A DNA stretch of 64,000 bases, counting the filler, from Basidiobolus ranarum (taxonomy: Eukaryota), in the NCBI GenBank assembly GCA_040143965.1. It is 13 parts of 13 records of this genome, joined end to end, with 100 filler letters (N's around TTAATTAATTAA, not from the genome) between each part and the next. Parts side by side here need not be neighbours in the genome. Positions count along the whole stretch, not along the records: positions 54,401 to 59,227 come from JASJQH010008691.1; 12 more parts are not named here. One strand, written 5' to 3'. The position numbers and the translations under genes were made by a program. Of the stretch, positions 1,700 through 62,400 are shown piece after piece (within the stretch, counting starts at the first letter, position 1; every line of letters starts with the position of its first letter). The notes under the pieces were generated by a model that ran no database searches, was not told the origin of the DNA, and saw only the letters and a program-made list of their open reading frames with translations.

Positions 1700-4600
1700 A
1701 AACTATTCACTGATGGCACAATAGATTTGCACATATTGGATTTGATTATTTGGGCAAAATGATCAGAAATTGTCTAATTTCAAGAATTCTAATTAATTTG
1801 TAACCAAAATGAAAATTTGTGAGGGTTGTAAGTATGGAAAACAACCCAGGCAACCATTCAAGAGCTCTGGTTTAGTAAAATCTGTCAAAAACAGGATCTA
1901 ACTGAATCAGATTTGTGTGGTCCTTTGCAAAATTAATCTTTAAATGAAAAAAGATAATTATTCACATTTATTGATGATTATACCGGTTATACATGGGTCT
2001 ACTTTATCAAGAGAAAAGAAGAAGCCCTCTCTATCTTTAGAAATTTTAAAACACTTGTGGAGACTTAGACTGGAACTAAAAACAAGAAAATACATACTGA
2101 TAATACTGGAATATAAAATTCAACACTAATTAAGTATTTTTGAAATGTTCATGGTGTGAAGCAAGAAACCACTGCCCCCTATTCACCTCAAAAACATGGA
2201 GTTGCCAAAAGAGCCAACAGGACTATAATAGATATAGCTAGATCTATGATAAATACACAGTTCATCCCATAACTTATGGGAACAATCTGTTCCTACAGCT
2301 GAGTAGTTGAAGAATAGGAGTTTCACAAGAAGGCTGTCTAACTCTATACCATGTTAAGCTTGGTTTGGAGATAAACTGGATGTAAAATATTAGAGGATCT
2401 TTTGCCACACTGCTTATTTTAGAATTATGACCAAAAATTGGTCTAATTTGATCCAAAAAAATAAGAAATGCATTTATCTAGGTTATTGTACCCAAACTAA
2501 GGCCTACAGACAATGTAATACCAACATCTCTTAGCCGATCAAGTCCAGGAATGTTTTGTTTAATGAATATGACAATATTTCTATTGGGAAAATATGGGCT
2601 GTTTGGAGGAACTATAGAAAAGTGGAGTTGTGAATAGCTTTGTGAAATAATTGTTCATTGTCCAGAAATAAAGCATTTATACTTTTTGGTGGAAATACAG
2701 AAAACTAACACTAGGGTTGTGTTCAGAACATCTGTTGGAGAGAAATGAGCTATCTTTGGGGCAATTTGGACAAGTTTGAAATTTCTAATATGCAATTTCT
2801 AATTCTCACATTATTTGCATATATGTATATTACATATTCCAATTTTCAGCTAAGTGATATTTGACTAAGTAATGTTAACAAACTTATATGTGATATATGA
2901 AATAGTTTGGTATATAAAGCTAGAGATAACAACTATGAAGAAGACAATAAACTTCAACAATTTCATCCAAAATGATTGCAGATAATGAAAAAAATCTATT
3001 TTCTCCTGATCCAATCATCCAAATTGATTGAACCAGAACAATGGAGAAAGTAGCATTCTGGTGGACCCTTCAACCTAAATTCTGCCAACTGAAGGGCCAA
3101 TTACAATGCTAGAAGTAGTAGTACCTATATCCTAAACCAGGAGATCAAATAAGGTCAGAAATAGCTCTGATTACTATATCAATGGGTCACTAAGTTGGGC
3201 CTATGCCTGCACAGCTCAAATATATGAGCCCAGAGTGTAAAGCATGCTTTGAATGGCCTACACAGGAATTTTTGGAGATACACAATGGGTGATCAGTACC
3301 AGGTTTTGATTGAAAATCAAACTTGGACTTCAACCAACTTAACTGATGATAAAAATTAATTGGCTGCCAATGGGTATTTAATGTTAAATACAACTCTGAT
3401 GGCAATATAGAGAGGTACAAGACTAGATAAGTAGCCAAAGGCTACTCCCAAACACCATGAATTGATTATACAGAAACTGTAGCTCCTATAGCAAAGTTTG
3501 ATTTAATTTGGCAATATCAGATAAATGGCAGTTTATAATACATCAAATGGATGTTAACATTGCTTTTTTGAATAATGAGCTTGCTGAGGAGAGCAAATGG
3601 ACCAGCCAGATGCATTTGTGGACCTGGAAAACCCTAAAAAAGCTTGTTGCCTCTGGAAAACACTCCATGGCTTAAAAAAATCTCCAGCAGCTTGTAACAA
3701 CAACTAGATGCTTTTTTGGAAACACTCAAGTTCCAAAAGAGTAAAGCTGACTATAGTATCCATTTCAGACCAGATAAGACAAACCCAGTTTTATTAGCCT
3801 TATAAGAAGATGATCTTATTATAGCAACCAATGACTTGAAGACTTAAGAGAAAACCACTTACTGCTTATCTGTCAAATTCAAAATGACTGATTTTGATGA
3901 ACTGACATACTATCTTGGAATCCAAATGCAGATGGATGGAACTACCATAAAAATGACTTTAAACCGGTCTTAGTATATCCTAGATATGCTAAAGTAGTTT
4001 TAAATGGAATAATATAATCAAGTATCTACCTCAATGGAGACAAATCTTAACTTTACCAAATATAGCTCAAATCAGATGTTTTTGTATTCAAATGAAGGCA
4101 AGAAATGTTCTTATCAATCTATGGTGTGTTATTTGATGTATATCATGGTTGGAACATGGCCAGATATTGTGTATTCAATGGGAGTTATGTGACAATATCT
4201 TCAAAATTACAGATTTGATCAAATTATAGTAGTTAAGCAAATAATCAGATATTTGAAAGGTACTGTGGATCTATGCTTAAAATACACATATTCTAGATCA
4301 AACTTTGATCTGATTGGAGACTCAGATAGAAACGGGGGAATGGATATTGAAGGCAGGTGATCTACAGCAGGATACATATTTCTTTGCTGTAATGGAGCTA
4401 CTTCTTGGAATTCAAAGAAACAACCTAATGTAGCACTTTCAACAACTGAAGCAGAATATATGGCTGTCTGTGAATGAATTGAAGAAGCAATATGGTTAAT
4501 AAAACTCTTAACAGATTTAGGTCAATCTCAACATTTGCCAACTACAATATTTCAAGTAAAGCAAAGTTGTATCAAATGGGCTAAAAATCCCACATTTCAT

Positions 4601-4862: not shown

Positions 4863-4962
4863 NNNNNNNNNNNNNNNNNNNNNNNNNNNNNNNNNNNNNN
4901 NNNNNNTTAATTAATTAANNNNNNNNNNNNNNNNNNNNNNNNNNNNNNNNNNNNNNNNNNNN
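4863..4962. other. Artificial contig linker (N44-TTAATTAATTAA-N44; stops in all six frames)
   Basis: The identical 100-nt spacer recurs at 9821, 14776, 19730, 24677, 29621, 34564, 39500, 44436, 49371, 54301 and 59228. The complete contigs between them fall from 4858 to 4827 nt without ever increasing, i.e. a size-sorted concatenation. Confidence 0.99.
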
Positions 4963-9584: not shown

Positions 9585-10020
9585 CTTATTCCAAAAAAGA
9601 TCTACTGCTATTTAAAATCTAGGGTTGACCTGAGAGTGATAGGCAAGATCTTAGATTCTTTTACAAACAAATATAGCGGCTTTGCAACCCTGTTGAATGA
9701 CTTGAGTAAGGGCATTATATACGGGAGCCTATATCATACACAAATAAGACCATTTCGTTGTCATTAATAAAAAGTAAAAGTCCGTCCTAAACCACACAAA
9801 GTTTACCTTGTGAGCGTCATNNNNNNNNNNNNNNNNNNNNNNNNNNNNNNNNNNNNNNNNNNNNTTAATTAATTAANNNNNNNNNNNNNNNNNNNNNNNN
9901 NNNNNNNNNNNNNNNNNNNNATATGGAGAGCTAAACAAGAAATTTGCATTTTCAAAGTAAGAATTACTACTTTTCAAAGAATAAAACTCCTCACTTTGAC
10001 AATAAGCTAATGCTACTTAC

Positions 10021-54400: not shown

Positions 54401-55149
54401 GCGGTAGTAATATTATCACGCACAGGTTGACCGGAGTGGATCATGAAACCGTCAGCGAATTTCATGGCCTTGGCACGAGCAGCACGAAGCTTGCCAGAGA
54501 TGACAACTTCGCAACCCTTGGCTCCAGATTCCATAGCGAAACGAAGAACCGAGTAGGCAGCACGACGAACAGCGAGACCAGCAATCAACTTGTAACGAAC
54601 AGATTCGCATTGAGCAATAGCGCATAGACCGCGGTTAGCAACACGCTCAGCATAGAGCTCAACAGTGTTTTCGGGGAAGTTGAAACGCTTTTGAACGACG
54701 GAAGTCAATTCACGAATACGACGACCCTTCTCACCAAGAACATCTTGTGTACGAGTGGCACGGATAATGATTTCGGTACGGGCAGGGGTCACGCGAACTT
54801 CAACGCCAGCGTAACCTTCCTCAGCGAGTTCGCGAGTGAAGAATTCATTAAGCTCGGCGTAGAAAACGCCATCGGCAACGAACTATAGCAAAAACAGAAT
54901 ATGGTTAAGACCGAACGCTTAAATGAGAACCCATTATTACAGTGGCTAAGTAGCCAAAAACCACATTTCGCTTGAATAGTTACTAGCTATCCATTGACAA
55001 GAATTATACATCCATCCTTAATTATATATACTACGCGAGTGTAAAATAGCCTCGCAACACCAACTAACGGCGTGTGGTATTGATGCCAAAGGCAAGAATG
55101 TAATTACAAAAATCGTTACCTTTCTCTTCTTGGAGATTTGAGCAGCCAT
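54401..55149 (-). CDS. RPS3: 40S ribosomal protein S3 (uS3), 3' truncated; exon 1 55120-55149, exon 2 54401-54882
   Basis: [10 protein letters not shown] / [19 protein letters not shown]...[13 protein letters not shown]...[19 protein letters not shown], with a 237-nt intron at 54883-55119. Confidence 0.98.
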
Positions 55150-57084
55150 GTTCGATGTAAGAGGAAGACCCCTAAAGATCATTTTTTACTATTATAGTCC
55201 CTCCAGAAAAAATGGGGACCCTTTGGATGGCACTCAAATAAATTTTGCGATCTTGGTAAATCACCGATTTCGGGAACTTCATATATCAAACTAAAATCAT
55301 GGATCAACTATTTGACGATATACTTACGCATCTTAAGGATACTTAAACAACTTGACTAGCCAGGGAATCGGATGGATGAAGCCCGTAAGTGTCCATGTCA
55401 TTAGTGTTAGGACACCCACACTCTGGAAGACTACGGGCTAGGCGCTCGTGTATAACCACCATTGCAGCACTCGTAATCACCAGAGTATCTGATATGCGGA
55501 CTCATAGGCAATGTTAATATTTGCTTAATCTAGAAAGCTCACAGACATAAAATGCAAGCACCTAGATCAAAGGTAGGTTTGACGAAATCAGATTCCGAAT
55601 ATTGGTACATCTCTCAATCAGTATAATAATAATACCTAATACTGGCATCCAGGTTTAGCGCACTCGTTCTGCCATGGCAATTAGCCATAAATCAGGACAA
55701 TCACTCTAGGAACTTAAACATATCTACAGAATCAAGCTAATGCTAGACTGATTTAGGGAGATGAGACTTGAGAAATTCACAGCATGATGCAAGATGAAGC
55801 ATCGAGCACATCCCCCAGGTGCCTTATTGTAGGCTATTGCTAATTAGGTCCATTGGCGACTGATCACAGCATACTGGTCAACATGGCTGCATAACCGGTG
55901 GCCACTATGCGCTGATACTTAGCCCCCTTATGCCCTTCCTGAAACCATGTAACCCTATACATCTCACCAGAAGAAATACCAACCTGTCGCGACAATACAA
56001 ATTTACAGTGTGCTACGTGCATTGGAAATAGCTCAAGTGACACAGAGAATCACATCAATCTCAAGGAGATCGGCCAATCTCTGGTTGCTTGGGCTGGCTC
56101 CTCATCCGTCGATGACCATTAATGGGTCAAGGAGATTGGAGCAGTTACTTCTACACAGCGCAATTCCCGGGTTAAGGTTTTTAACTCATCTGAACATTAA
56201 ATATAGTGCAGATAAGAATAGGCGCAAATGATACCCGCCCACCTGTCGGAGTATTTCCAATTAGAAAATCCCTCGGATAATCTGACATCCTGTGACAAAT
56301 GGAGCTTTCACGATCTATGGTCAGATATCTCGCCAATAAGTAGGCGGCACTCTCAGCTTCAAGTATCGCTACTTGAGAACCGTCGATGGTTTCCTCACTC
56401 TTCCATGATTTAGCCATAATTAGGTTTCATGCATGTAGCTCGGATCTGGTCCTTCAGTATTGCGACGTTAAAAAGTGAGAACAAAAGCCTCTACGGAGTT
56501 GTCGTCGTGCTGGGATGAGCAGGTGCGCAGGTATTGGGGTCTAAAAATAATCCACCCATATATAAATAGTGCTGAGCCGGATAATCATGGGATTGTTGTT
56601 TGAAGCACATTGAACAGTTTTGATGGTGCATTAGATGATGATGCATTAGGCTGAATTGAGGCCACAAACGCTGACTATTAATAGAATTTCTTGAACATCG
56701 TTAATGAGGTGGATCGGTCACTTCTTTAACGAGAAGCTACAATAAAACAAAGGAAATGCTATATGAATATGTTATAAGGGCACCCACATATTTTCAACCT
56801 CAACTACTCAATCTGTTGGGCTGGTTTTGGTAGCATCTATTTTTATCCGTAGCTCAACACCAGTTGTGCCTACTATTTAATCTTCGAGTGTTAGCCAGAT
56901 CTCCATAGCTTTGATTCTTTAACTGTTACTTACGCGACGAGCCCTTTGATCCTACATATCTCTAACTATATCTTTTGATATCTACCTCTTTCCGTTAATC
57001 CCATTAGTGAAATAGTAAATAGCGCGTGACATATCATTAGTTAACCAAAAGGGCATTTTATAGTTGTATTTACCCTTGAAAGGT

Positions 57085-57891
57085 ATGGCTGTAATGCTTC
57101 CTCAATCAATATCCCGTTCATTCTCGAAAGCTACAAGAAGTCCACTACGACTTGACATCAAAAAACGTCATTGTAAGCCTCTTTCCTTGGTGATACCTCA
57201 ACCTTCTTCGCCGTTATCGGCGCCCCCCCTTTCAAATAATTCACCTACTCTTATTACTCCAATAAGTGTTGCCTCACTTTTAACCCACACTCTAAATCCT
57301 CAAGAGCCCGCTAGCCCGCTTCAAGAAAGTACCTATCAAGCTGGCCCTATCTGTATACTACCAAACCTTTATTTGGGTTCTGAACAGAATGCTCAAGATA
57401 AAGATAAACTGGGGCAGAGTAACATTCACTTTATTTTGAATGTAGCCCAAGAAGTTGATTCCCCTTTTTTCACTGAGGGTGAGACGGAGGCAGAATCGAA
57501 CATCTCGCTGACACCTGGCTCCACACCACATGCTCTTAAATACAAGAAAGTTAACTGGTCACACAATCAAGAAAGACTAAGTAAAGATTTTTCCGAGCTG
57601 TTTGCTTTTATTGACCAGGCTCGTATAACAGGCTCTGGTGTTCTGGTACACTGTCAATGTGGAATATCACGTTCTGCTAGTCTAGTTATTGCATATGTTA
57701 TGCGCACCTTACACCTTTCTTTGAACCAAGCATACGCGTTTGTTAAGGTGCGTAGCCCTTCTATTTCGCCCAACCTGTCGTTGGTGTATCAGTTAATCGA
57801 GCTAGAATCTTCGCTCAATCTGGATGGGCCTTCCGACTTCTCTGATTCGGGTTCCTCAAGTTCTAGTGCAGTAAGTTCACCCTCCACTTGA
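57085..57891 (+). CDS. Dual-specificity (MAPK) protein phosphatase, Pmp1/Msg5-like, 268 aa
   Basis: GPICILPNLYLGS, VLVHCQCGISRSASLVIAYVM (HCxxGxSRS) and SPNL. N-terminal KKRHCKPLSLVIP resembles a MAPK docking motif. Confidence 0.92.
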   Translation: MAVMLPQSISRSFSKATRSPLRLDIKKRHCKPLSLVIPQPSSPLSAPPLSNNSPTLITPISVASLLTHTLNPQEPASPLQESTYQAGPICILPNLYLGSEQNAQDKDKLGQSNIHFILNVAQEVDSPFFTEGETEAESNISLTPGSTPHALKYKKVNWSHNQERLSKDFSELFAFIDQARITGSGVLVHCQCGISRSASLVIAYVMRTLHLSLNQAYAFVKVRSPSISPNLSLVYQLIELESSLNLDGPSDFSDSGSSSSSAVSSPST

Positions 57892-57976: not shown

Positions 57977-58140
57977 TACAGTATTTTAATCTAAGATGAG
58001 ACGAATTAAAAAATCAATTAGACATTTCATAAAATAAATGGGACGATCGCAAAATATTGGAGAGAAGTGAACAAAAAAAATTAGACGATGGCAATTCTTT
58101 TTGTAGACACATGGCAAAAGACAAAGTGGACGAAAACATT
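57977..58140 (-). mobile_element. Putative Tc1/mariner-type transposon end downstream of the Fanzor
   Basis: TA + CAGTATTTTAATC at 57977-57991, and five related TCGTC(Y)-type subterminal motifs on the minus strand at ~58004, 58025, 58046, 58087 and 58132. Confidence 0.55.
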
Positions 58141-58188
58141 TTATTGTTAAAAGATTTACTCTGTATCTAAAGTTTGGTGTTGCGATAA

Positions 58189-59227
58189 CTACACAGGATG
58201 GTTTGCTTTTTTCGTTGGTCAACTGCTGCTAACTGACGAGATACCCATTCTTTTATACCCGGTGGAGAGAGGTTCCTTCAATCTGCACAAACGCTCTAGC
58301 CTTTCCCCAGTTGAGCGCAAGTTAAAAAGGATATGTCTAAAGTTTAAAGTAGCAGCCAAGTCATGATTCCAAAGACGAGGAAGATAAACTTCAGTAGTTG
58401 CCTCAGTAGCATTGGTTACAACCTTTGAGCATTGTTGGTTTTTGCACCTGAGCAGAAATTATGCTTTAATCTGGAATTTTTTACCTAAATTTTTTACTTG
58501 CATCCAAAAAGCGTTTACCCTAAAGTGCCGTGACGATATACAATAGGATACTTTTCTCTTTTGTACGGTCTAGGTTTTTCTACTTTTCCGGTTCATCGTT
58601 CTGGCAAGTAGGGCACAGACTTGAAGTCTTAAACTCGTCAAGGAGGTATAGCTGGAGGCCTTCTTTGGCTAGCATTCTTCTCCTTCCGACGCCTTTATTG
58701 GACTCCTGATACTTTACATTTCCAGTCGACCAGTTACCAACTATTAGTATAGTATCCTTCCCAGACTTTTCTCGAAGATTCTTGGCAAGCCATTTCTGAA
58801 TGTAGTTGGTTAATGAAACTTGAGAGCTTCATTTTTCTAAAAGGTAACAAACTACTGGTGCGCCGATCTTCTCCTGTGGGGCGATCTTCATTTGAATAAT
58901 ATGCTCTCATGACCAGAGTGACTTTGGCTTTTCCTTAAAGATACTCGGCAAACTTGTCTTTGTTGGCAGTTGAAGATTTAAAATCTGATAGGGAAAGCTC
59001 AGTTGTGATGACTTGGTCTGTCTTTAAGTTCTCTCTGAATTTCTGCATTTTGTTTCAACCGCTTTTTGGTTGCTTGTATATCGGTAAACCATTTTGTTTT
59101 CAGCGGTACTTTCTTCGTGCATACAGTACAGCAACTCGCGACATCCAGGATCAATTAGCACACATTTGCCAACACCGGCCAACATCTCTTCTCTTCTCAG
59201 CTTCTCCACATACTTAAACTCCTCTTC
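58189..59227 (-). pseudogene. Fanzor (eukaryotic TnpB-like RuvC RNA-guided nuclease), C-terminal portion, frameshifted
   Basis: CVLIDPG (RuvC-I D, 59150-59152), LPFRKMKLSSFINQ, ILIVGNWS, YLLDEFKTSSLCPTC (E, 58634-58636), HGTLG/CKNQQC zinc finger split by an intron at 58448-58518, and LWNHDLAATLNFRHI (RuvC-III D, 58360-58362). Confidence 0.88.
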
Positions 59228-59429
59228 NNNNNNNNNNNNNNNNNNNNNNNNNNNNNNNNNNNNNNNNNNNNTTAATTAATTAANNNNNNNNNNNNNNNNN
59301 NNNNNNNNNNNNNNNNNNNNNNNNNNNGTCTTATTTTAAAACCTTAATTCGAATCTAACTTAGAACTCTCTCACAGACCCAATTTAAAACTTTCTAAATT
59401 TATTTCGCAAAATATTATCTAGCCGGCGT

Positions 59430-62400
59430 CCATATGAAAATCAATATTTTAACATGTATGAATACTATCAGAATACCATCAAGAAGCCACTGTCACACCA
59501 TCAAATTTCCTGGCAGAAGGCAAGCCACCAGTATTGTGATGGTTCTCTGATGGTTTTGCAAATTAGAAGGGCGGTGGATCCAATCCAGATCAAGTTGATT
59601 TTATTTTTGTGAGGGTTTTTGGAGCCTGAGGGACATTTCATAGCTGCAAAAACAGTCCAATCTGCATCATTGTGCTGAGTATTAGATCTCCTTACTTTGT
59701 CATTGAAAAGCTCAGTACAAACATATTCCATCATTAATGGCACTGATGTGGCTTCTAGGGCAATTATCAGGTTCCCAAACTTTTCTGACAGCCTCCCTAG
59801 TAGTATCTTAAGCAAGTGCGGTGGGGATTTGGATGAGGTTTTAACAAGATTTGGTTTTGCATATTAGACAGTTAAGTTTTATTGAATTGAAAATGGCCTC
59901 TTCAGAGTTTACTTTGAAATAGGAGCATTGGACATGCTTTGCTTATAACAAACTTACCTGTAGAGCATGGGTGGAGATTTGAGGTGATTTTGAGAAGTTT
60001 TGTGTAAATATTGAAAATTGGTAACACTGTTCTTGTTGATATTGCCATCAATTAGAGCAATAAACAAATGTTTTAGAATGGAAAATTGATTTCTAAATAA
60101 TCAGAAAGTGAATTAACATACTACTCAGTAATCAGTAGCTGTTTACCTAATTTCAGCATTAGTAAGTACTAAGAAAGACTCAGAAATGTCATATATTAAT
60201 TCAGTAGCTGCCCAGAAAATGTCAAACAAGACATGGAAGATTGTGCTGCATTGGGGAACAAAACCTGGCACAATTGATGCAATATCAGCATGTTTCAGGC
60301 TTAGAAACTGAAAAAACCACCAGGTTGAATTTGTGTTAAGATTTCATGTATGTAAAATATCAACAACAGCAGTTTACAAGCTTTGAAGCAATTAAATCCA
60401 CTCAGAATCTTGCCCTGATTCATTCTGAGCTCTGTGGGCTCATGAAAGACCTCTCACTAAGTGGCAATAGGTACTTTAAAGCCATGCTTGATGACAAAAC
60501 AAGACATGCTTGGGTATTCATTCTGAAATTAAATTGGGATCCTTTTCTAATTTCAAGCACTACTAAGCAATGTTAGAGACACAATCAGCAAAAATTATAT
60601 GGATACTAAAGAGTACTAATGGTGGAGATAACTGTGCTAAAGACTTTGCTAGTTCTTGTTCTCAACATGGAATTAAGAAACAAACTACTGCATCTTATGC
60701 TCCACAGCAAAATGGAGTTGTAGCATGTACTATTAAGACAATAGTTGAGATGGCTAGCTCAAGATTCTGGCTGTATGTGAGCATGATTCAATGGATGTCT
60801 TTGCCCCATTTTCATCTGAGGATGATTGAGGACCCAGAAGAGCATCCAGAAGGAGGAATAAGCCAGTAACTGGTAGAACACTTCCCTTGCTGATGTCCAT
60901 GCTCATGCCCCAGACTTTAGATCAAGCTTTGGAGTGTTGAGAGTCAAAATTATGGGTAAAAGCAAAGTCTGATAAGTCTTCTTTGGTTTGGAACACTAAA
61001 ATGTCAATTATAGTGTTCTCTACCATGAGGGAGAAAGCAAATAGGTTGCAAATTACTCTACAAAGTCATAAACCAAGCTGATGGAATCAAAGAAGCTTCA
61101 ATGCAAGACTAGTTACAAAAGCTTTATGAAATATTTGCTCCAGTAGCCAGGTTAGGCTCCATTGGATCAATCTTTGCATTCTTAGCCATCCATACCCTTG
61201 ATTTAGGGAAATCTAGGTCAGGTTTTGGAATACCCTAGCACTCCTGATGAACAAAATTTTGAAGGCTACAGTGATACAGACTGGGCAAGAAACCTTGATG
61301 ATAGAGTAGTAACAACTGTGTACACTTTTCCAATGGTAATGGGGCCATAACTTGGAATAGTAAGAAGCAACCAGCAGTAGCACTTTCCACTTCAGAGGCA
61401 GAGTAAATGGCTGCATCTGCTACTACACAAGAGGCTCTGTGATTAAGAAAGTTATTTACAGACTTAAGTTACATGCAAAAATGTGCTATTACTTTATTTG
61501 AGGATGATCAAAGCTGTATTTCATTATCTAAAGCCCTTCATTGTATGCTTGAACAAATCACATCAATATTATGAATCATTTTTTAGAGAAGCAACAGAGA
61601 ATGATGTAGTTGAACTTGTCTATTGAACTATGGAAGAAATAATTGCTGACATTTTAACCTCACCTTTTGCTAAAGCACCATTAAAATTATTAAGATACAA
61701 GTTAGTTTTAACAGAAATGCAAAATAAATAGTTGAGTGAGAATGTTGATATTAGGTGAATATCAGCTCATTATTCAGTAGTTTGCTATTCATATTTTTAT
61801 TATTTTTAACTTTTTTGTGCCATCAGAAATGTGTGTTTCTTGCTCCAATTGATAGAAATGGCAATAAGATCACTTTTACCATTTTTAGAACATCTCCAAC
61901 TCACCTGATATTTACACCCATGCTTAACAGGCATTTTGTTATTATATAAACACATCCAATAGTTCTATTTTATAGTAAACTAAAAGTAGAACCTATGCAA
62001 TTCAATACACTTAAGTGTACAATTCACAAATCCAAATCTTGTCTAATACACTTCCAATCCCCTAGACACTTTTATCCTATATATATGTCTCAATAGATAG
62101 TCTTTGTGATGCAGACAAAATGTAAAGGGTGCTTTTCTCTGCTTCTTGTGCAAGGCAAGGATAGTTGCTGGTGGTTCCTTTGGCTCTATTTCTTCTCATG
62201 TAGCCAATCCCCAAAGGTCCTTGTCTACTAGCACCATTGGCATCTTGAAATTCCAAAAGTCAAAGTCTTCACCATCAAACTTCTGTGTGGATGCAAAAAC
62301 ATTGGTAACAGTACTGGTAGACATTCCTTTAATAGCTAGCTTGGGGCTCATAACCCAAAAAAAGTGTTTAGGGGATTTGGAAGTGATTTGGACAAGATCA

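Follow-up and report, generated by a model that had tools for sequence, protein, structure and literature searches.

A dead Fanzor1 transposon copy beside a Basidiobolus-type gene, likely derived from Mucorales

Introduction

Fanzor1 proteins form an already described family of RNA-guided endonucleases with solved structures and thousands of relatives. Here we describe an ordinary member of this family, now dead, in a 64,000-nucleotide (nt) stretch of DNA from Basidiobolus ranarum (assembly GCA_040143965.1; hereafter the window, whose positions are used throughout). The minus strand of 58189-59224, on contig JASJQH010008691.1, is judged by homology to be a decayed, contig-cut Fanzor1 gene.

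The reference systems are characterized as follows in the passages of the literature cited here. PpFz1 of Parasitella parasitica is an omegaRNA-guided DNA endonuclease from a Mucorales lineage with 5'-ATN as its target-adjacent motif (TAM), and a cyclophilin-binding insertion in RuvC, termed FRI, is given for Parasitella and Rhizopus only (Xu et al. 2024, PMC11423790). In SpuFz1 of Spizellomyces punctatus, the Mg-coordinating residues are E541, D383, N385 and D606 (Saito et al. 2023, PMC10432273), with D606 taken as the third catalytic residue (Xu et al. 2024, PMC11423790). Fanzors have a rearranged RuvC-II, in which an alternative glutamate precedes the TNB zinc finger and the canonical position is occupied by G or P; the rearranged glutamate is found in the TnpB2 subset, too (Jiang et al. 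2023). For some Fanzor1 carriers, a Tc1/mariner-type TA duplication has been described (Bao and Jurka 2013, PMC3627910).

Results

A Fanzor1 pseudogene cut by the contig end

Frameshift- and intron-aware dynamic-programming alignment of the window DNA against P0004 (Rhizopus delemar, 544 amino acids), the nearest full-length relative, matched minus-strand positions 59224-58192 to P0004 residues 215-544; the two sequences agree at 216 of 316 aligned residues (68.4%). The 330 C-terminal residues of a Fanzor1 protein are readable through 58192-59224 (-) in this way, the same pieces otherwise appearing as minus-strand stop-to-stop frames of 25-83 residues. An earlier note on this DNA, made by a model from the sequence alone, had stitched a Fanzor peptide across three frameshifts and one intron. 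All peptide pieces quoted there are present on the minus strand, and we recovered both the intron and the frame changes, the latter near 59040, 58803 and 58588 (Table 1).

Among Protein Data Bank (PDB) chains, window fragments matched Parasitella parasitica Fanzor1 (9cf0) with E=2.2e-20, 4.8e-12 and 7.4e-5 and Spizellomyces punctatus Fanzor1 (8gkh) with E=4.3e-10 and 2.8e-4, in line with the Fanzor1-type copy proposed in the earlier note; P0004 itself matched these two chains with E=1.3e-128 and 7e-52, respectively. A profile built from 33 family members identified the Parasitella (3.5e-252), Spizellomyces (7.3e-168) and Guillardia (2.8e-33) proteins in the PDB. The sole further row at E≤1 was an unrelated chain (E=0.95), and no TnpB or Cas12 chain was found with this profile among PDB chains. 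The earlier note had named a best profile match outside the RuvC families as evidence against its proposal; the best matches are to Fanzor1 only. When fragment 58580-58828 (82 residues) served as query, the 59 candidates included 8 proteins with E≤0.01, every one of which belongs to Rhizopus; a family search yielded 190 proteins at E≤1e-10, the best 120 of which came from Mucorales together with Coemansia, Piptocephalis, Syncephalis and Umbelopsis. The Fanzor family comprised 2575 representatives at E≤1e-3, 1387 at E≤1e-10 and 280 at E≤1e-30.

For comparison at the DNA level, metagenome contigs were scanned with an alignment of six family sequences (fragment 58580-58828 plus five relatives); of 116 pattern matches, 5 were confirmed as loci. 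One of them is L001 (4815 nt), where the gene is open, has a continuous exon 1 and shows 92-94% identity to P0004. The exon 1 remnant of the window shares 576 of 706 aligned nt with this intact locus (81.6%). The intron position is the same in both, the L001 exons stopping at 4038 and resuming at 4089, and the intron 3' ends are alike; at 51 of 59 aligned nt (86%; L001 4039-4088), intron identity lies above that of the exons. At the intron 3' end, the downstream frame reads LLR, as does the end of the upstream exon in both the window and L001, and a run-through translation shows LLR twice.

Relative to L001, the window copy carries three frame-breaking deletions, to which two nonsense codons are added. 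The part that would precede P0004 residue 215 falls outside the contig, and no open frame for a full-length protein with N-terminal WED/REC domains is left. Because of these deletions, the nonsense codons and the position of the 5' part outside the contig, the copy cannot make a protein; it is a Fanzor1 pseudogene and not a working family member. Decay and the loss of the 5' part at the contig edge had both been recognized in the earlier note; its list of lesions was right in the three frameshifts and left the two in-frame stops (TAA and TGA) unmentioned. Across 311 codons, comparison with L001 gave a synonymous divergence (Ks) of 0.63, a non-synonymous divergence (Ka) of 0.15 and a Ka/Ks of 0.24. 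Most of the divergence thus arose under selection, the decay of the window copy itself contributing a smaller share. Substitutions relative to L001 were symmetrical (C>T 36, G>A 31, T>C 45, A>G 30), and a bias resembling repeat-induced point mutation is therefore not seen.

Could the gene nevertheless be intact and functional, its frameshifts and stops representing assembly or sequencing errors or unrecognized introns? The assembly is highly fragmented, into pieces of ~4.8 kb, and both the low Ka/Ks and the extensive retention of conserved columns, including the whole catalytic and zinc-finger set (see below), would suit such a view. However, the frame-breaking gaps of -10, -2 and -10 nt are not single-base slips, and the two in-frame stops were made by substitutions. 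Nor are the lesions introns, since the protein alignment runs on across them without extra sequence and L001 exon 1 is continuous there. Three related proteins (P0078, P0136 and P0072; see below) are fragmentary as well. We regard an intact gene as very improbable.

Table 1 Features of the Fanzor1 locus, its contig and the window
Feature	Position	Strand	Basis or remark
RuvC-I aspartate codon (LIDPG)	59150..59152	-	8gkh chain position 777 = SpuFz1 D383; D in 129/132 relatives
Relocated RuvC-II glutamate codon (LLDEF), before zinc-finger CPTC	58634..58636	-	8gkh 935 = SpuFz1 E541; E in 113/124
RuvC-III aspartate codon (WNHD)	58360..58362	-	PpFz1 WNRD; via P0004, 8gkh 1000 = SpuFz1 D606; D in 80/91
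Exon 1 remnant (RuvC-I, linker, RuvC-II, first half of TNB zinc finger)	58519..59224	-	P0004 residues 215-457
Intron, 71 nt, GT..AG, phase 2	58448..58518	-	Frameshift-aware alignment
Exon 2 (second half of zinc finger, RuvC-III, basic C-terminal tail)	58189..58447	-	200/253 nt identical to L001
Terminal stop TAG of exon 2	58189-58191	-	Frameshift-aware alignment
Frame-breaking lesion 1, net -10 nt relative to L001 (gaps 1+2+3+4)	59030..59043	-	Frame change at 59040-59041
Frame-breaking lesion 2, net -2 nt relative to L001 (58795/58796)	58795..58805	-	Frame change at 58802-58805
Frame-breaking lesion 3, net -10 nt relative to L001 (58574/58575)	58574..58588	-	Frame change at 58587-58588
In-frame stop TAA	58935..58937	-	Q in relatives
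In-frame stop TGA, C-terminal tail	58219..58221	-	Q in P0004, R in P0072
3' non-coding region	57977..58188	-	Homology to L001 and L002 up to 57977; 3' flank 60/77 nt identical to L001
Right terminal inverted repeat, ~132 nt	57977..58108	-	Matches both L001 ends in opposite orientations; 104/131 nt identical to L001
TA at element boundary, possible target-site duplication	57977..57978	.	TA after both L001 ends and the window end
Dual-specificity phosphatase host gene	57064..57891	+	Pfam DSPc E=4.6e-33; convergent with element
Ribosomal protein S3 fragment, host gene on the same contig	54403-54882	-	Pfam KH_2 and Ribosomal_S3_C
Linkers between joined contigs, N44 + TTAATTAATTAA (12 nt) + N44	4863-4962, 9821-9920 ... 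59228-59327	.	n=12, non-genomic

Retained catalytic residues and subfamily

Chain positions of 8gkh_P, taken from HMMER alignments, were converted to SpuFz1 numbering by one constant tag offset (394). The three acidic residues that the earlier note had read as retained align by sequence with D383, E541 and D606 of SpuFz1. Indeed, the displaced glutamate that it had placed just before the CxxC lies in LLDEF, and the canonical RuvC-II glutamate position is a G (within GNW) in the window, as in 125 of 132 relatives. From this G to the glutamate of LLDEF, the window counts 34 residues compared with 'approximately 45' in the relevant passage of Jiang et al. 2023. For the third acidic motif, the aspartate itself is kept, the motif reading NHD in the window and not NRD as previously noted. 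Between RuvC-II and RuvC-III lies the C4 zinc finger (TNB), with CPTC and CKNQQC retaining all four cysteine columns. An alignment of 157 relatives has 29 columns with a conservation of 85% or more that are occupied in 60 or more sequences; 26 of these columns are kept in the window, including the three acidic residues and the four cysteines, and three are altered (D>E, L>T, F>L). By alignment, the window copy thus still encodes the D/E/D triad and the four zinc-finger cysteines.

The site of the FRI is 12 residues long in the window. The window, P0004 and most relatives fall within 0-14 residues at this site, compared with 108 in Parasitella and 36-57 in a separate Rhizopus clade. On this measure, the window copy is assigned to an FRI-less Fanzor1 subfamily.

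The right end of a transposon

Homology to L001 is not confined to the gene. Window positions 57977-59225 align with L001 4580-3309 at 76.6% nt identity over 1289 nt, gaps counted, or 995 of 1230 aligned positions (80.9%); the match extends 212 nt past the stop codon and ends sharply at 57977-57979. The terminal segment 57977-58108 additionally matches L001 1721-1855 in the opposite orientation (78.5% over 135 nt), the other L001 end being at 4580. As these terminal 132 nt recur inverted at the other end of L001, the L001 element measures ~2.86 kb and is bounded by ~135-nt terminal inverted repeats (TIRs). It appears to hold the Fanzor gene only, and the window contains the right-hand ~44% of such an element. 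Within the inverted repeat, YGTCTM motifs are repeated ~20 nt apart.

When the four available ends were aligned (the right ends of the window copy, L001 and a second metagenome locus, L002, and the reverse-complemented left end of L001), conservation halted after ...AAAAYACTR, beyond which the flanks share nothing. The CAGT-type termini of the element presumably resemble those of Tc1. The TA at the boundary (Table 1) suggests, but does not prove, a Tc1/mariner-type target duplication. No other copies or termini were found in the remaining 12 pieces of the window by tblastn, blastn or a terminal-motif search allowing up to 3 mismatches. A repeat search found no inverted repeat of the element within the contig, as expected with the left end missing.

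Two of the metagenome loci deserve mention in their own right. Upstream of the Fanzor element, L001 has an open frame (1-906, +) with a sub-threshold Phage_integrase (tyrosine recombinase) match (E=6.4e-4), and it may represent a Crypton/DIRS-like element beside the Fanzor transposon. L003 (1351 nt), a second pseudogene, carries a frameshifted family piece whose two frames show 74-82% identity to P0004 and which is 78% identical to the window at the nt level; it stands nearer to the Rhizopus type.

A Mucorales-nested element beside a Basidiobolus-type gene

The read-through protein is 67% identical to P0236 of R. arrhizus, 56% to the best R. microsporus protein and 49% to that of Helicostylum; Coemansia copies show 40-46% identity to P0004. 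Three short unnamed representatives (P0078, P0136 and P0072) are nearer to the window copy than to P0004. In their best-matching segments, of 127 and 73 residues, P0078 and P0136 are 74-78% identical to the window copy, and P0136 has its unusual DPGCR; for P0072, the figure is 63% when its 26-residue gap, in which the RuvC-III motif is lost, is included. All three are probably further decayed copies of the window lineage.

In a quick tree of 60 rows, the window copy stood beside the R. arrhizus/delemar clade, with R. microsporus as the next group out (87) and Coemansia, Piptocephalis, Syncephalis and Umbelopsis on the opposite side. A more careful tree (38 rows, 322 columns, rooted on Coemansia) included P0078, P0136 and P0072. 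Omitted from it were 25 near-duplicate or long-branch rows, the Phycomyces row among them (P0238, P0249, P0250, P0253, P0255, P0261, P0265, P0275, P0276, P0277, P0280, P0041, P0308, P0305, P0312, P0316, P0328, P0331, P0302, P0303, P0310, P0049, P0329, P0315 and P0313). Here, the window copy and the three short representatives formed a clade (100/98) that was sister to R. arrhizus/delemar (98/96) and nested in an all-Mucorales assemblage. The best tree grouping the 31 Mucorales rows to the exclusion of the window clade was rejected by the approximately unbiased (AU) test (log-likelihood difference 44.35, p=0.0011).

The host DNA tells a different story. The stop codon of a phosphatase gene lies 85 nt from the element end, and its product is 79% identical to a Basidiobolus meristosporus protein (E=6e-131) and 76% to a B. 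ranarum protein (E=1e-124). Among the matches listed, those from outside Basidiobolus reach at most 63% identity, and the ones above 50% span no more than 39% of the query; Mucoromycota proteins attain at most 44-52%, with partial coverage only. By protein identity, the gene adjoining the element is thus assigned to a Basidiobolus-type host. Basidiobolus (Basidiobolomycota) and Rhizopus (Mucoromycota) belong to different phyla in the NCBI taxonomy, and the Mucorales-nested position of the window clade is incongruent with this neighbour. The mismatch between a Basidiobolus-type host and a Rhizopus-type element had not featured in the earlier note.

A chimeric contig, in which host DNA was joined to contaminating Mucorales DNA, could create such a mismatch, and the draft is indeed fragmented, with the element at a contig end. 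Yet the end of the element lies 1.25 kb inside the contig, close to the stop of the host gene, and no repeat common to both sides of the junction was seen. Moreover, the window copy is identical to no named Rhizopus sequence (best amino-acid identity 67%) and falls in its own clade with other decayed copies. We consider a chimera unlikely.

Alternatively, an old Fanzor1 paralogue may have been kept by vertical inheritance in both a Basidiobolus-like lineage and Rhizopus, without any transfer. Paralogous Fanzor1 lineages are numerous (R. oryzae has 4 families and Mucor has 10; Bao and Jurka 2013, PMC3627910), the careful tree contains two Rhizopus clades, and Zoopagomycota such as Coemansia have the family as well. 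Such a history is hard to square with the ~80% nt identity, which includes the intron, 3' flank and TIR, or with a Ks of 0.63; synonymous sites generally saturate over phylum-level divergence. The R. microsporus copies, besides, lie further from those of R. arrhizus/delemar than the window copy does, and both the AU test and the low, partial similarity of the phosphatase to Mucoromycota proteins speak against vertical descent, which we hold to be improbable. Both the chimeric and the vertical alternative bear on the transfer only and leave the identification of a Fanzor1 pseudogene unaffected.

The position in the tree agrees with the ~80% nt identity in coding and non-coding DNA and the Ks of 0.63, making transfer from a Rhizopus-related member of the Mucorales the most economical explanation. 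A cross-phylum horizontal transposon transfer from Mucorales is therefore likely but, as it rests on one contig, unproven.

A candidate omegaRNA region

By analogy with the layout of the SpuFz1 locus, an omegaRNA scaffold would be encoded at 58188-57977 (-). Compared with L001, synonymous sites differ by a pS of 0.42, and the 3' flank, TIR and intron are more conserved, with identities of 78-86%. That non-coding parts are more conserved than synonymous sites hints at constraint. RNAalifold, run on three sequences of which two are nearly identical, predicted the terminal 16 nt to pair with a site just after the stop codon (58153-58166 with 57977-57992 on the minus strand; ~4385-4400 with 4565-4580 in L001) via 13 pairs, one of them compensatory (C-G/U-A between window and L001). 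The internal site after the stop also resembles the terminus at the left end of the element (L001 1722-1737) and could equally be a third transposase-binding site. The predicted pairing may thus reflect either a long-range omegaRNA stem or a third terminal transposase site. The 3' region may mark a putative omegaRNA scaffold of ~200 nt, larger than the 75-nt omegaRNA of PpFz1.

The window and its other features

The window consists of short contigs of a fragmented assembly joined end to end. Arithmetic on the linker coordinates gives 13 pieces of ~4.8 kb whose sizes decrease along the window (4858, 4855, 4854 ... 4830, 4827), and the Fanzor1 remnant is contained in the 4.8-kb contig at 54401-59227. 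The contig edge given in the earlier note is real and abuts a linker at 59227/59228. Owing to this concatenation, DNA beyond 59327 is unrelated to the element, and any feature spanning a linker is an artefact. The element-bearing contig also holds the ribosomal protein S3 fragment listed in Table 1. On the next contig, short frames at 60567-61500 (+) resemble, by eye, bits of integrase and RNase H such as a decayed Ty1/copia-type retroelement would leave; three pieces of this region searched against Pfam gave no match at E≤0.01.

Discussion

Taken together, our observations make it highly probable that the locus is the right-hand part of a dead Fanzor1 transposon copy, most likely transferred from Mucorales. 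Positions 57977-59227 would represent ~1.25 kb from the right side of a DNA transposon that is bounded by long inverted repeats and whose sole gene encodes a Fanzor1 RNA-guided endonuclease; its intact relatives measure ~2.9 kb. Working members of the family would make a protein that combines WED/REC domains with a split RuvC and a TNB zinc finger, and an omegaRNA whose 3' extension into flanking DNA would act as the guide, the complex presumably cutting matching DNA beside a short TAM. The intron, the 3' non-coding region and the right inverted repeat have stayed recognizable in the dead copy. The element most likely reached the Basidiobolus-type lineage by horizontal transposon transfer from Mucorales. 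A more detailed scenario, which we hold to be slightly more probable than its opposite, has a TA-flanked Fanzor1 TIR transposon of the R. arrhizus/delemar subfamily crossing from Mucorales into a Basidiobolus-like fungus, proliferating there and decaying, with the window copy as one relic among several and the 3' region possibly retaining an omegaRNA scaffold.

Several observations weigh against this account. With respect to the gene, Pfam searches with six fragments returned only a sub-threshold PF07282 match (E=0.037; 14.6 bits, the cut-off being 26.3). Five full-length relatives likewise stayed below threshold, and the label PF26935.1 carried by relatives did not turn up in the Pfam copy searched and is left unnamed here. 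As to the transposon, one element end only, the right one, is in the contig, with the left end outside; the L002 end has no clean TA, and L001 is the single complete TA-flanked element (n=1). For the omegaRNA, single-sequence folding of the 3' region was no better than that of shuffled sequences (z=0.29), and the entire contig had no Rfam match at E≤1. Concerning the transfer, the claim is based on a single 4.8-kb contig with one host gene. In the quick tree, the window position had a Shimodaira-Hasegawa-like approximate likelihood-ratio support (SH-aLRT) of only 92 and formed an unresolved fork with the long-branched Phycomyces row, and the grouping put to the AU test was picked after the tree had been seen. 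Finally, Basidiobolus has no entry among the best 120 of the 190 relatives, which is weak evidence.

If the transfer is accepted, the window copy marks a candidate cross-phylum movement of an RNA-guided-nuclease transposon, with a close kinship to Rhizopus elements that includes non-coding DNA. Fungal transposon transfer has been reported to be extensive, mostly of Tc1/Mariner elements and frequent in Mucoromycotina, with 99 transfer events between taxa more than 700 million years apart (bioRxiv 10.1101/2025.06.16.659975). With such transfer already widely reported, the present case would be a new instance of a known process, and it fits the frequent Tc1/Mariner transfers, especially those in Mucoromycotina. 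The word Fanzor is absent from that preprint, and the literature searched contained no paper naming Fanzor together with Basidiobolus. The candidate transfer also relates to a speculation in the cited passage of Xu et al. 2024 (PMC11423790) that Fanzor1 may join in transposon-mediated gene transfer among these fungi. Comparison of the locus with its relatives also delimits an FRI-less Fanzor1 element of Rhizopus type, giving its ends, its intron and a 3' region that is conserved; intact natural members for studies of omegaRNA and TAM could be selected on this basis.

How does the window copy compare with known systems? With respect to bacterial TnpB and Cas12f proteins, the sub-threshold PF07282 (Cas12f1-like TNB) match covers the segment with the relocated glutamate and the CxxC, whereas the window gene is eukaryotic and has an intron. 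SpuFz1 (8gkh; Saito et al., Nature 2023, PMC10432273) is homologous, its catalytic D, E and D aligning with those of the window, but it is far more distant, its repeats are 30 nt long as opposed to ~132 nt in the window, and its N385 is replaced by a G. Among solved structures, PpFz1 (9cf0-9cf3; Xu et al., Cell 2024, PMC11423790) scored best with each of the three window fragments tested. The two resemble each other in MDPG/IDPG, LIDEF/LLDEF and WNRD/WNHD (PpFz1/window) and have in common a CPxC...CKNxxC zinc finger; the window copy differs in belonging to another subfamily and in being a pseudogene that misses its N-terminal half. Nearest among the known systems is the Rhizopus arrhizus/delemar family annotated as 'hypothetical protein' or 'Transposase' (P0004, P0236), with 65-67% amino-acid identity over 330 residues. 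These relatives and L001 probably count among the R. oryzae Fanzor1 families covered by Bao and Jurka 2013. Together with L001, they agree with the window copy at 80% of coding nt and in the place of the intron, and their TIR and 3' non-coding region are homologous to its own. In contrast to these open genes residing in Mucorales, the window copy is broken, lies beside a Basidiobolus-type gene and belongs to a separate sister clade.

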